From Myxococcota bacterium (GTDB lineage: Bacteria; Myxococcota_A; UBA796; CAJQPC01), in assembly GCA_036012755.1 (NCBI GenBank), contig DASCPX010000193.1, positions 1 to 64,000 on the forward strand: a stretch of DNA of 64,000 nucleotides, in the 5' to 3' direction. The position numbers are program-made. This document shows, in pieces, positions 1-3,000 of this stretch (position 1 is its first letter; every line of letters starts with the position of its first letter).

Positions 1-3000
1 CGAAGTCCTCTCCGAACCGACGAATGGCATCCCGGCCTTCGGGGTCGGTGCGAGTGCGGTCGACGACCGTGACCGATGTGACGTCCGGCGGCAAACCGAT
101 GTGCGATCTGGGCGAGGCTGACGCGCCGGGTCCCCAAAAATGCACGCCCGTGTGCAATCTGGGCGAGGCTGACGCGCAGGGTCCCCAAAACTGCACGGCT
201 GCCAGATCAGTGCTCAAGGACCGTCCTGCGGTCCTTGGAGACCGATCAGGTCCTCGTGCGACAGGTCCTCGTCGTCGTCCCCCGTCACCGTCACCGTCAC
301 CCGTCACCGTCACCGTCACCGTCACCGTCACCGTCACCGTCACCGTCACCGTCACCGTCACCGTCACCGTCACCGTCAGACATCTCTCAGCGCAACATCC
401 GCGCCACCAGCAACCCAATCCCTGTCGCGATCACCGTCGGGAGAAAAGCCGGCACTGTCCCTGCTGCTGCTACGCCCACCAGGACCGCCAGGACCGCGAT
501 CCCCACCAATCCCCCCAGCGGCCGAGCCCACCCGGGCAACCGTCTCGCCACCAGCGCTGTCCCCAACCCCGCGATCAACGCTGCCAGCGCGTCCCACAGT
601 GGCCTTCCCAGCCGCAAGGCCCGCTGCCGAGCCAATGACTCCAAGAGCGCCGCGTGCAGCTCTACTCCCTGCCTCGACCCAAGGGATGTTCGCAGCCGAT
701 CCCCTCGCCCAGACAGATCCCCGATGAACACCACCTTCCCTGCTGCTCCACCATAGGGCCCGCTCCAGTTCAACTCCGGGCTCGGACCCACTGGCGGCAG
801 GTGGAGCCGCCCTCCGGACAGCGGGTTCCGTGTGACCCCGACCTCCAGCTGCCCCTCGCGCACGACCGGCTCGGCGTTGAGGTGGGCGCCAAGCCCCAGC
901 ACCGCGAGATGCCAGGCGGATCCTTCCTCGACGGACATCTCTACCGGAGCCCGCCGGACCTTGCCAAAGAGCACATCCCGCTCGAACTCCGCGACGCCGA
1001 CGACGAGACCATCGATGACCGGCCTGGACACGGTCTCGCCATCCACACGAAGCGGAGCGATGACAGGTACTTCCAGCCCGGTCAGCGCCTCTGACAGCGC
1101 CGCGTCGTGCTCCGTCTCCGCGAGCAACAGCACATCGAGCACGACCGCCGTGGCCCCAGCCTCCTGGAGCTCCGACAGCAGCTGTGGATACTCCGCGCGC
1201 AGCTCCCGACGATCGACGTCGGCGGGCAGCGCAATCAGCACAGTCTCCTCGGCCTCCAGGGTGCCGTGCAGCAAGGAGACGACCGCCGGCCGCAGGGCCA
1301 GCTCCAGGAAGTCCAGCGCCGAGCTCAGCGCCAACAGCGGCGCCACGAGCACCAGCACCCACTGCCAGGGCAGGCGACGAGGGGGAGCCGCGCGGGGAAA
1401 CAGCGGCGCCAGAGCCGCCTCGAGTGTGGCCACCGGTCGAGCCAGCTCGTGCTCCGGCGCCCCCTCTCGAGGCAAGACGACCTGGCGCAGCCCCTCCGCT
1501 GCCCTCAGCTTGGCCGGGATGCCCGCTACCTTGGCGACTCGACCGTCCAGCTCGACCGCGCCGGTGAAGCCGACATCCCGAGGAATGCGTACCCCCTCGC
1601 GAGCCGCTCGCGTAGCAGCCGCGATGGCCAGTCCCAGCGAAGCGCCGCGGACCCTCTGCGCCTCTGAGAGCTGCCAGCGCACACCGAAGCGTCGGGCCTC
1701 GTCCCCGAGCGCAGCAGCGACCGCCACCTGGGCCCCGAGCAGGGTCTCCTGGGCCGCGCCCTGGGTCGTCCAGACCCCGCGCCCCCCAGCGGAGAGATCC
1801 ACGACGACCTCGACCTGGTGACCCTCGCCCCGACGGTCGACGACCAGGGCGATGGCCCGTGCCCTCAGCGGCGTGGCCTGGAGCGCGCGCCTCTCCAGCT
1901 CCTCCCTGATGCCTTCGTCCAGGACGTGGGGCAAGAGGCTCGCGGCCATCAGGGGATCCTCGGGCAGAGCCTCGCGAAGAGCCCGGTGGAGCTGACCGAG
2001 CGCGGTCTCGTGCCTGACGGAGTCCTCTGCGTCCTCTGCGGCGACGACCGCCTGGAGCAGCTCGCCGAGACCCCTCATCGAACGAACGCGGCCTCGTGAC
2101 CGAAGGCGGTGAAGGCCTCGACCTGGACCGCGCCGATGCCCTCGATCCGCTGCACACGCTCGAGCTCCGCGGGCAGCGTCACGCCGGAGAGCAAGGTGTT
2201 GTCGGTGTTCACGCAGACCCGCACCCCCCGGCGCAGCCACCGGGCCAAGGGGTGGTCCTCGATCCGCGAGATCACCCCCGTGTGCCAGTTCGAGCTTGGA
2301 CAGGCCTCGATCGTCACCTCCTCTCCGAGCACGAGGTCGAGCACCTCGCCCGAGTCCAGAAGGGTCGTCCCGTGGCCGATGCGCTGAGCCTTCAGCTCCC
2401 TGATCGCGACAGCGATCTCCTCAGCCGGGCGACCCTCTCCAGCGTGCACCGTGCGTCCGATGCCGTAGGCCGCAGCACGCTGGAATGCCGAGCTGTAGGC
2501 CTCCATCCCGAAGCGGTGAAGCGGCGTGGGTCCGCCTGCGAGGTCGATGCCGACAACCCCCTCACGAGGGATCGCGGCCGCGACGAGCCGATCGAGCACC
2601 GCCGGGTCCTCGCCATAGAGACCGCAGAGGATCAGGCCTGCGCGCCCGTCGATGCCCTCCAGGGCGGCGTCGATGTAGGCCTCGAGCGGATCACCGTGGA
2701 GCTGGGGCGCGAAGCGGATCTCGAGGGTGGTGATGCCCTCTACCGCGGCGTCCTCGCACATCTCGTCGGCGATCCGGGTGACCGCGGCAGGGCTGCGGAG
2801 CAGGGACAGGGTGAAGGCGAAGCGCGACAGGGCGGCGTCGAGGCCCATGCCCGGTGAAAACGCGAGCTTCTGTGGTACGTCCAGGCTGAGCACGTCGGCG
2901 AGGTAGCGCACCGTGCCCGGGCGCAGCGAGCCGTCGAGGTGGCGGTGCAGCTCGCTCAGTCCCACAAGGTCCGACCCGCCTCTGCCAGCGCCGGCTCCAG

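Follow-up and report, generated by a model that had tools for sequence, protein, structure and literature searches.

The familiar role of Lon protease domains is ATP-driven degradation; in one case, a Lon domain is known as a CRISPR switch gated by a second messenger. That switch, CalpL, combines an AAA-less Lon domain carrying a Ser-Lys dyad with a sensor and a helical N-domain; CCaCalpL is described as cutting the anti-sigma factor CalpT in the motif LAAA, exposing an LAA degron (10.1101/2024.05.08.593097), and SsCalpL as requiring Ala at P1 (10.1101/2021.12.06.471393). A Lon cut of an inhibitor that frees a sigma factor has so far been shown only in CRISPR immunity. In Anabaena, HetF is described as a membrane protease with a cytoplasmic catalytic domain and a periplasmic sensor that cuts the anti-sigma factor PatU3 once, general proteases finishing the cut protein (PMC9457339, PMC13342950); the ECF factor sigmaHetZ carries insertions and is bound by its inhibitor at sigma4 and a C-terminal insertion (PMC13342950). 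A Trichodesmium metacaspase is laid out as an N-terminal cytoplasmic protease, a helix, CHASE2 and three helices (PMC3501461; also PMC2853523), and EACC2-caspase-CHASE2 proteins are reported with an ECF sigma nearby and DUF1822 (PMC8195603). A FecR-domain envelope protein is encoded beside CHASE2 receptors in Burkholderia (PMC5192318, which calls the activator of CHASE2 domains unknown) and in Campylobacterota (PMC9239204).

Here, a membrane receptor that appears to use a Lon domain for its output is encoded near the start of the window that we analysed (64,000 nucleotides of contig DASCPX010000193.1, from a myxobacterial genome; Table 1). The open reading frame and the Lon-CHASE2 fusion of a preliminary description were borne out: the two Pfam families that it named, CHASE2 (PF05226, E 1.2e-12, 48.4 bits against a cut-off of 26.3) and Lon_C (E 3.5e-6), both scored above cut-off, and the start Met is that of the homologs in the alignment. 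The protein is indeed AAA-less, since Pfam finds no AAA family in it; just 69 residues precede the protease domain, an AAA+ module is absent from the chain, and NCBIfam Lon models reach 13–33 bits against cut-offs of 516–891. Our new model (pLDDT 87, against 83 before) again had the E. coli Lon protease domain as its top Foldseek match (E 1.6e-9, r.m.s.d. 2.8), with a Lon fold match (VIA) of Z 22.4 and r.m.s.d. 2.0 over 158 residues.

Table 1. Features of the receptor locus, in window positions or, where marked, on contig C87.
Feature	Position	Strand	Remark
Overlap with last bases of contig C87	1..139	.	exact match, 139 nt
Dispersed repeats and GTCACC tandem run	96..384	.	outside the system
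Receptor gene	387..2078	-	563 aa; N-domain and Lon protease domain, then one helix, CHASE2 and a further three helices
Three C-terminal membrane helices, aa 493-561	396..602	-	model and charge count
CHASE2 sensor domain, aa about 255-492	603..1316	-	Pfam PF05226; putatively periplasmic
Membrane helix 1, aa 238-254, Arg-Arg just before	1317..1367	-	hydropathy, model, charge count; topology inferred
AAA-less Lon (S16) protease domain, aa 70-229	1392..1871	-	Pfam and fold; putatively cytoplasmic
Predicted catalytic Lys190 codon	1509..1511	-	alignment to Lon entries and homologs
Predicted catalytic Ser147 codon	1638..1640	-	alignment to Lon entries
Four-helix N-terminal domain, aa 1-66	1881..2078	-	DSSP of predicted model
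Adenosine deaminase	2075..2965	-	end of upstream housekeeping run; context, outside the system
D, FG-GAP, secreted propeller protein	C87:91777-93207	-	
C, FecR plus barrel-like	C87:93161-94117	-	
Two divergent promoter motifs	ends at C87:94113 and 94181	- and +	
A, sigma-like, 322 aa	C87:94200-95168	+	
B, candidate anti-sigma, 134 aa	C87:95165-95569	+	RLAA at 55-58

Is the Lon domain a protease? Its predicted Ser-Lys dyad is spaced 43 residues, as in Lon. Invariance of both residues, reported earlier for 8 of 8 homologs, now holds for 13 of 13 aligned ones, and Ser147 is invariant in an alignment of 36/36; it aligns with Ser in the Lon entries other than the top one, whose sequence has Ala in place of the catalytic Ser at this position. 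Among 160 relatives we found 66 Lon+CHASE2 proteins, 64 of which keep the dyad, down to about 26% identity (one or both residues are missing in P0044 and P0060). These sequence comparisons support the prediction that the domain is the protease of a membrane receptor. Its family profile matched LonB/LonA at E 1e-22 to 1e-17 and CalpL at E 0.37, and the fold match to CalpL (Z 15.2) was below that to Lon. Because the domain is far nearer LonA/LonB than CalpL, CalpL specificity need not apply to it. An ESM Atlas search with residues 1–230 returned Lon only. The N-domain gave generic helical fold matches only (all Z <7), has no paralog in this genome, and is swapped for a Ser/Thr kinase or missing in many relatives.

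A profile search with the receptor family recovered 102 cluster representatives at E<=1e-30 (the earlier figure of 82 came from a single-protein query), and the count of full-length receptors in 10 of 22 family genomes was reproduced. So was the presence of N-terminal kinases in many relatives: our own profile placed one in 19 of the 66, 16 of these Pfam-confirmed, excluding the C-terminal kinase of P0015 as a likely read-through. A search of our own also found this CHASE2 subtype joined to CHAT, in P0112. The output slot is modular, holding Lon, kinase, both, CHAT or TIR. Two other Lon-like or CHASE2 matches in this genome were set aside, one being RadA and the other a CHASE2 gene that follows a TPR gene and is unrelated. 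CHASE2 is flanked by one membrane helix before and three after (Pfam, model and charge count). The basic loop 2–3 and basic tail match an N-in, C-in topology; the charge pattern agrees at helix 1, loop 2–3 and the tail, but the segment ahead of helix 2 is basic too. CHASE2 would face the periplasm and the Lon domain the cytoplasm.

The preliminary description held, wrongly, that the neighbours are not conserved. It had judged the neighbourhood inside the window only, and so missed four gene families that recur beside the receptor and are present here across a contig break, about 1.4 kb past the contig end on C87: an unannotated sigma-70/ECF-like protein (A), a small sigma4-clamping candidate (B), an outer-membrane protein with a signal peptide, a FecR domain and a barrel-like C-terminus (C), and a secreted propeller protein (D). 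The first 95 nt of the C87 overlap match no other contig. Contigs from four sequencing runs neither confirmed nor contradicted the whole join, since none of them spans the GTCACC run; one contig reaches 1268 nt beyond the window's first base on the upstream side. Between receptor and B lies a 1.38-kb insert, to which the dispersed repeats and GTCACC run of Table 1 belong and which also contains a truncated DUF6340/TPR frame; at a locus of the same genus (L044), the stop codons of receptor and B abut. On the other side, the receptor ATG overlaps the stop codon of the adenosine deaminase gene, coupling the receptor translationally to a housekeeping run that is common only to L044. The genome is 96% complete and has two ClpX genes.

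Among 154 genomes of the order, 33 had a Lon-containing receptor match and A was present in all 33; genomes with A had the receptor in 33 of 35 cases, the two exceptions being 83% and 72% complete, and A occurred in none of the nine genomes with CHASE2-only matches. These genomes are related, and the counts therefore overstate independence. Lon receptors that have a different ectodomain, or none, are likewise flanked by A and B (L052, L084, L090; B in L086), and the sigma pair occurs only with Lon versions of the receptor. C lies beside 8/9 CHASE2-only control loci, which are without A or B. A and B follow the protease, and C follows the sensor. Gene order and orientation vary between loci and membership is constant; at 29 of the 30 A loci, B comes directly after A. 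Of seven loci fetched from a second order, four have all five genes in a single co-directional run, and the other three have A, B and C without a receptor in the stretch examined. Sigma and Lon trees are congruent (Mantel rho 0.84, much of which could be obtained from common ancestry alone). As to exceptions, an apparently intact receptor lies next to a frameshifted sigma gene at L050, B is split at L121, and five receptors (L043, L089, L099, L114, L115) do not adjoin A or B in the stretch fetched. The hosts of the receptor pathway are uncultured marine myxobacteria.

What are A and B? Searches of A against Pfam, NCBIfam and PDB sequences gave nothing significant (best sigma70-ECF E 0.008, in one of 12 members), nor did NCBIfam return a HetZ or PatU3 family or Foldseek any match to the model (pLDDT 90) at E<=0.001. 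In fold comparisons, residues 1–125 matched sigma2 (SigW Z 8.1, r.m.s.d. 3.0 over 89; sigmaE region 2 Z 8.1) and residues 224–293 matched sigmaE region 4 (Z 8.3, r.m.s.d. 1.5 over 68), the two falling in the order sigma2 then sigma4 at Z 7.5–8.3, which is modest for a helical protein. From the models, A is most likely a previously unrecognised sigma factor. Since neither A nor B is visible to Pfam and NCBIfam, sigma censuses of these myxobacteria miss both.

B has a helical N-part of ~55 residues, too short for a MazF fold, and a C-part that looks beta-rich; 28 B sequences had no match in Pfam or PDB, ESM Atlas gave nothing usable (best feature score 0.78, model pLDDT 0.39), and a titin Ig match of the C-part (E 0.1) was discounted. 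The A-B complex was modelled with an ipSAE of 0.68 against 0.00 for the best of three controls; the mark was reached by 116/157 solved and 2/215 mismatched pairs, and runs share at least 59% of contacts, with partner pLDDT of at least 69. In the model, B 1–36, upstream of the Ala-Ala motif, sits on A 251–314, suggesting that B clamps sigma4 of A. Ala-Ala is the sole invariant pair in B (35/35 non-redundant sequences, median identity 30%, gathered by a profile that includes the motif). It is preceded by L, Y, F or V, with R in 28/35, and followed by a variable residue (A 11, D 9, Q 6, S 3 of 35); here the linker reads RLAA and the next residue is K. In the second order, LAAA is present in each of the 6 longer B proteins that were called. 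The pair lies in an acidic linker outside the modelled interface, a position more in keeping with cleavage than with a role in binding.

Upstream of A and C we found an ECF-type motif, TG[TAC]AAC-N15-CCCTTGAT. AAC is typical of ECF -35 elements. With the 15-nt spacer, the motif had 41 matches in 45 system loci, against 0–9 for each of 12 other spacers, the motif having been discovered and counted on the same loci; nine control loci had 2 matches. In this genome, the spacer of the site ahead of A is 16 nt long, and no site was found ahead of A in the seven second-order loci. Genome-wide, the motif is not enriched and its counts do not separate genomes with A from those without, which led us to reject a large regulon. 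The genes that it precedes encode secreted proteins or lipoproteins (FG-GAP, MopE, beta-helix, RTX repeats or unknown).

We consider it likely that these genes form a trans-envelope, protease-gated sigma-factor pathway. At rest, the first ~36 residues of B would clamp the sigma4 (-35-binding) domain of A and so hold A. A surface cue would act through C, perhaps with D, on periplasmic CHASE2, and a shift in receptor pairing in the membrane would make the cytoplasmic, ATP-independent Lon domain active. Lon would then cut B once after R-L-A-A (A58|K59 here), removing the C-terminal beta domain and leaving a sigma-bound piece that ends in LAA; ClpXP would degrade this piece, and the freed A would transcribe a small regulon from the motif, made up of the A-B operon itself, C-D and a few genes for secreted proteins or lipoproteins. 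Where members read kinase-Lon-CHASE2, the kinase output would run in parallel. The proposal draws on genomic and sequence comparison for architecture, dyad, linkage, co-occurrence, Ala-Ala pair and promoter-like motif, and on models for the folds and A-B binding. From these we infer the topology, the C-CHASE2 contact, the activation mode, the cut, the degron step and transcription by A.

Could the system serve defence? An anti-phage or envelope-attack module like CalpL-T-S or DdvA-DdvS, a reading that concerns purpose and is compatible with the mechanism above, seems unlikely. The known Lon-anti-sigma-sigma cascade is immune, DdvA-DdvS is reported to govern a Myxococcus defence island (PMC11506125), the Lon subfamily is fused in other proteins to STAND, NACHT, TPR and CARF domains, and caspase-like genes lie near two tested Lon loci (L051, L052). 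However, A, B, C and D had no PADLOC match, and the PADLOC CRISPR-Lon models match only a ~55-residue catalytic stretch of the receptor; no cas genes were noticed among the called neighbours, and Cas10 of the tested family (TIGR02577) had no match in this genome, the control being positive in 5/14. None of the genes behind the motif is a defence gene.

It is rather unlikely that A and B are a sigma/anti-sigma pair under the receptor without an Ala-Ala cut, the Lon domain cutting itself, the receptor or another protein, or sequestering B, and the kinase, if present, being the real output. Non-protease Lon-fold domains do exist (RadA, ComM and BrxL were among the fold matches), the kinase-fused members retain the HRD..N catalytic loop in 16/18 checked, and the two dyad-deficient proteins fit; against this stand the breadth of dyad conservation, the invariant Ala-Ala outside the modelled interface, and the presence of A/B with kinase-less Lon receptors and their absence from Lon-less kinase-CHASE2 receptors. 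That the receptor cuts B at Ala-Ala while A is a two-domain DNA-binding regulator, and the motif an operator or another sigma's promoter, is improbable. No sigma HMM scores A above cut-off, LuxR-type helix-turn-helix domains match its C-terminal half as well as sigma4 does, and about 100 extra residues separate the two sigma-like parts; but its N-terminal 120 residues match sigma2 of many sigma factors with nothing else near the top, the motif combines AAC and a strict spacer 8–100 nt before start codons, and sigmaHetZ is a precedent for ECF sigmas with large insertions (PMC13342950). A stand-alone small-molecule receptor protease with an unlinked substrate, its neighbours hitch-hiking in a mobile block, is very improbable. 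In its favour, the distribution is patchy inside genera (1/4 in g7), the receptor here is coupled to housekeeping genes, with the insert standing between it and B, and CHASE2 is termed a small-molecule receptor domain (PMC8195603), but hitch-hiking leaves unexplained why membership is kept through reshuffled order and orientation and is split between Lon (A/B) and CHASE2 (C).

Under the protease-gated pathway, the term "receptor protease" of the preliminary description is better supported than before, because a candidate substrate, sigma factor, upstream partner and promoter can be named; "one-component" was not supported, the receptor being the middle of a multi-gene pathway. As substrate, cut site, sigma and promoter are all predicted, reconstitution in E. 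coli would need four genes plus a reporter, and that reporter would be a direct screen for CHASE2 activators. A literature search agreed with the earlier statement that no paper holds both terms: CHASE2 and "Lon protease" were not found together, except as whole words in an intensive-care congress book, and neither the Lon-CHASE2 version nor its partners turned up in print, supplementary files aside. The idea of a protease-CHASE2 receptor is not new; the Lon version and partners apparently are. Given the caspase-CHASE2 receptors and HetF-PatU3-HetZ as published analogues, we regard the system as a new variation on known logic. A bolder proposal is possible though doubtful: that this is a complete non-CRISPR trans-envelope Lon/LAA-anti-sigma/sigma cascade with new sigma and anti-sigma families, that CHASE2 senses protein C and not a small molecule, that the beta domain of B is distantly related to that of CalpT, and that the Calp cassette of CRISPR arose when ordinary receptor systems of this kind were recruited and their sensor swapped.

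How does the locus compare with the described systems? The receptor resembles CalpL in domain composition, B resembles CalpT as a candidate anti-sigma, encoded nearby, with LAA between the part modelled to bind sigma and a small C-terminal domain that looks beta-rich, and A resembles CalpS as a neighbouring ECF-like sigma, with an LAA degron predicted here. By sequence, however, the receptor Lon domain is not a CalpL ortholog; SAVED, which in CalpL binds cA4 in the cytoplasm, has no counterpart in a chain accounted for by Lon, CHASE2 and helices, the sensor here being CHASE2, probably across the membrane. CalpL docks its substrate via the N-domain, and an equivalent is missing in many receptor members. 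CalpT consists of MazF-like and DUF2080/Ig-like domains, the 23-kDa MazF-like domain taking the place of the short helical N-part of B, and A is larger than CalpS and without an HMM match.

HetF-PatU3-sigmaHetZ parallels receptor-B-A in layout, as judged from descriptions; HetF is a CHAT cysteine protease that cuts after Arg and has periplasmic TPRs, whereas here the protease is a Lon Ser-Lys domain. Caspase/CHAT-CHASE2 receptors have the identical membrane layout but a protease of another clan, and their authors proposed roles in autoproteolysis or cell death, the cited text naming no partner cut site. The Burkholderia and Campylobacterota receptors share the FecR-domain neighbour and differ in a C-terminal output (histidine kinase, adenylate cyclase), in contrast to the N-terminal protease and/or Ser/Thr kinase here. 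Finally, RseA-sigmaE (10.1101/2024.05.08.593097) and DdvA-DdvS (PMC11506125) likewise couple an envelope signal to anti-sigma proteolysis, an Ala-Ala C-terminal ClpXP degron and ECF sigma release; there the anti-sigma spans the membrane and is cut from the outside in, whereas here B would be soluble and the receptor itself the protease.

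The fusion of a Lon protease domain with an intact dyad to a CHASE2 sensor, proposed in the preliminary description, was borne out. Lon_C and CHASE2 both scored above the Pfam cut-offs, and the Pfam scan found no AAA domain. In a structure model (pLDDT 87), four helices (residues 1–66) precede the Lon protease domain (70–229), one membrane helix, CHASE2 and three further helices. The Lon domain matched E. coli Lon in a fold search (Z 22.4; Foldseek E 1.6e-9), and in alignment S147 and K190 fall on the Lon dyad. The receptor has no signal peptide, and basic residues precede helix 1 and recur in loop 2–3 and the tail. 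Because of these features and of N-terminal kinase fusions among relatives, the protease is predicted to be cytoplasmic and CHASE2 periplasmic, a topology whose charge rule is violated by a basic stretch ahead of helix 2.

Searched with a profile, 1.84 billion representatives yielded 102 at E<=1e-30. Among 160 relatives, 66 combine Lon and CHASE2, with the Ser-Lys dyad intact in 64; an N-terminal kinase, previously attributed to many relatives, was detected by our own profile in 19 of the 66, and 12 of the 160 are kinase-CHASE2 proteins without Lon. In the 109 relatives scanned for domain fusions, CHAT-CHASE2 and TIR/SEFIR-CHASE2 each occur in a single protein (P0112, P0113) with the same CHASE2 subtype. 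The AAA-less Lon subfamily of the receptor occurs elsewhere in fusions with DUF4384, NACHT/nSTAND3, nSTAND1-FGE, TPR, CARF or RNase HII (P0127, P0111, P0145, P0160, P0156, P0153, P0083, P0098). Since Lon, kinase, CHAT and TIR/SEFIR replace one another ahead of helix 1, this position is an exchangeable output slot.

The neighbours of the receptor gene had been described as not conserved. Gene calling in 17 related loci refuted this: four families recur, namely A (~330 aa), B (~145 aa, directly downstream of A), C (FecR domain) and D (secreted proteins with FG-GAP, RCC1 or MopE repeats). This genome, whose best-matching sequencing runs are marine metagenomes from two studies, holds A, B and C as single copies at the terminus of contig C87. 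C87 ends in the 139 nt with which the window begins, an exact overlap whose first 95 nt match no other contig. In the protein collection, moreover, the longest contig is of one and the same length for the receptor, A and B. On these grounds, we place these genes 1.38 kb from the receptor stop; no public contig spans the whole join. Repeats and a truncated DUF6340 frame make up the insert between receptor and B, which abut without an insert in L044, a locus of the same genus. Within window positions 96–384 lie a tandem run of GTCACC and dispersed repeats of ~50–60 nt that recur across several contigs; a reversed GTCACC-like run lies directly behind B on C87. With similar runs at both sides, the insert is therefore flanked by them; the repeats and GTCACC runs break assemblies at this place.

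Coordinates of the receptor gene and of further genes in the window and at other loci (L numbers)
Feature	Position	Strand	Remarks
Receptor gene	window 387-2078	-	563 residues; start in ATGA overlap with adenosine deaminase gene
Kinase-like membrane protein	window 4804-5997	-	degenerate catalytic loop HGWLDP; adjoins fused mutase gene; present in L044 too
AglB/STT3-like oligosaccharyltransferase	window 11255-13297	-	divergent from glycosyltransferase gene
Truncated DUF6340/TPR lipoprotein-like frame	L053:11968-12501, into window 1-139	-	in B-receptor insert
371-aa lipoprotein-like gene	L142:3932-5047, same contig beyond window	-	near-perfect motif 57 nt upstream
444-aa unannotated gene	L143:2692-4026	+	near-perfect motif 30 nt upstream
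Second CHASE2 gene of this genome	L144:1959-6169		as called, without membrane helices behind the domain; between long TPR gene and secreted-protein gene; different system

Across 154 genomes of the order, counted with kin genomes that are not independent, A occurs in 35, and 42 give a match to the receptor profile at E<=1e-23 (8 candidates per genome scored). The Lon domain is covered by 33 of these matches, and A is present in all 33 genomes; it is present in none of the nine with CHASE2-only matches. The two genomes with A and without a receptor are 83% and 72% complete. Within the family, A and the full-length receptor gene occupy the same 10 of 22 genomes, the receptor count reported earlier. 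Of 401 sampled genomes of the phylum, 16 contain A, all from this class. A and B adjoin Lon receptors regardless of ectodomain (L052, L084, L090; B in the short L086), and B comes after A at 29 of the 30 loci; the remaining one stops at a contig edge. C adjoins eight of nine control loci of CHASE2-only receptors; A and B adjoin none. Four of the seven loci fetched from a second order of this class carry all five genes in a single run of one orientation. The stretches of L043, L089, L099, L114 and L115 have no A or B near the receptor, and A lies elsewhere in those genomes. A in L050 (genome G014) is broken by stops or frameshifts beside an apparently intact B and receptor, and is a decaying or mis-assembled copy. 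Over 25 loci, the A tree agrees with the Lon-domain tree (rho 0.84; maximum 0.47 in 2000 permutations), an agreement that shared descent alone can produce. In L052, L084 and L086, the Lon receptors have non-CHASE2 ectodomains and A/B are kept; nearby genes there instead encode an HTH-DUF4423 protein, a short secreted protein and caspase-like secreted proteins.

What kind of protein is A? The sequence libraries searched gave no family name, and Foldseek no match at E<=0.001. In its model (pLDDT 90, 113 sequences), residues 1–125 resemble sigma2 (SigW, Z 8.1, rmsd 3.0 over 89; also sigmaE region 2, CnrH, SigC and BldN) and residues 224–293 resemble sigma4 (sigmaE region 4, Z 8.3, rmsd 1.5 over 68), LuxR-type domains tying with sigma4 for this second part. 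About 100 residues, including a beta hairpin, separate the two, and a helix lies behind sigma4. Judged by this model, A is sigma-like. Its insertions resemble in layout those of sigmaHetZ of Anabaena, described as a proven ECF sigma with insertions (PMC13342950).

Upstream of A, we found a bipartite motif, TG[TAC]AAC-N15-CCCTTGAT, seen in 40 stretches. The word search alone rose barely above shuffles. With its 15-nt spacer, the motif matched 41 times in 45 system loci (555 kb) and twice in the nine control loci (120 kb); 12 other spacers gave 0–9 matches each in the system loci. Matches precede A, C and neighbouring genes for secreted proteins, in many cases paired back to back, and are not enriched genome-wide. 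Thirty sites of other genomes served to train a weight matrix; applied to this genome, it ranked the site before C first and the sites ahead of two unannotated genes second and third; the site before A came seventh of ten, and the other six lie inside genes. These two genes (in L142 and L143), which have no Pfam match, are predicted to be distant targets of sigma A. In the second order, no copy of the motif was found upstream of A. There, L136 and L137 carry a variant, GCAAAA-N15-TCCTTCG, where it is expected upstream of A, and other loci a GCTACGCTCC..GGAGCGTAGC hairpin in its place.

In B, an acidic linker joins a helical N-part to a beta-rich C-part. Two alanines are its only invariant residues (consensus R-L-A-A-x-D) in an alignment of 35 non-redundant of 38 full-length sequences (median identity 30%); the second-order B proteins are longer but homologous, with LAAA in all six called. 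A model of the A-B complex scored 0.68 and the best of three controls 0.00. Of 157 solved pairs, 116 attain the score mark, as do 2 of 215 mismatched ones. Contacts agreed to at least 59%, and partner pLDDT was at least 69. B residues 1–36 pack against sigma4 and the last helix of A in this model, which leaves the Ala-Ala motif free and supports binding of A by B. B is a candidate anti-sigma factor with a predicted cut site. CCaCalpL, a Lon protease of type III CRISPR systems, is reported to cleave its anti-sigma factor within LAAA, at a place that separates the sigma-binding portion from a small C-terminal domain, and the LAA terminus so exposed to act as a degron, like VAA of RseA (10.1101/2024.05.08.593097); SsCalpL is reported to require Ala at P1 (10.1101/2021.12.06.471393). 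Two ClpX genes are present in this genome.

How might a signal reach A? C has a signal peptide and a FecR domain, and its C-terminal part shows an alternating outer-membrane-barrel pattern (alignment of 31). FecR proteins are described beside CHASE2 kinases and cyclases (PMC5192318, PMC9239204; a weaker link in PMC5498481), which makes C the best input candidate; it may contact CHASE2. A surface cue would pass through C to CHASE2, and receptor pairing would activate the Lon domain, analogous to the in-trans cut of CalpL. The protease would cut B once after LAA, ClpXP would then act, and the released A would transcribe the A-B and C-D genes and a small number of genes for secreted proteins. We consider this pathway as a whole fairly probable. 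Since the receptor gene is coupled to housekeeping genes in this genome, its expression here is probably constitutive and that of the remaining genes autoregulated. The N-domain, a potential dock for B, is often absent among relatives. The Lon domain is much nearer LonA/LonB than CalpL, so the LAA common to B and CalpT, the CalpL-linked anti-sigma factor, may reflect convergence on a ClpX degron. A role of the system in defence is less likely; the predicted targets of A point to cell-surface remodelling.

The open literature, to which the search was confined, held no description of the system (CHASE2 with Lon; Calp homologs outside CRISPR; Lon with anti-sigma and LAA degron); among 14 listings for CHASE2 with protease, no title or opening of an abstract concerned Lon. 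The system is real and adds two new protein families. Its proposed working is similar to that of CalpL-CalpT-CalpS, but it has no SAVED domain and no CRISPR link, and to that of the Anabaena HetF-PatU3-sigmaHetZ system (PMC9457339), but it has no CHAT domain; it is a member of neither. Caspase-CHASE2 genes adjoining ECF sigmas have been noted (PMC8195603), and a caspase-CHASE2 protein of Trichodesmium is described with the same membrane layout as the receptor (PMC3501461, PMC2853523).
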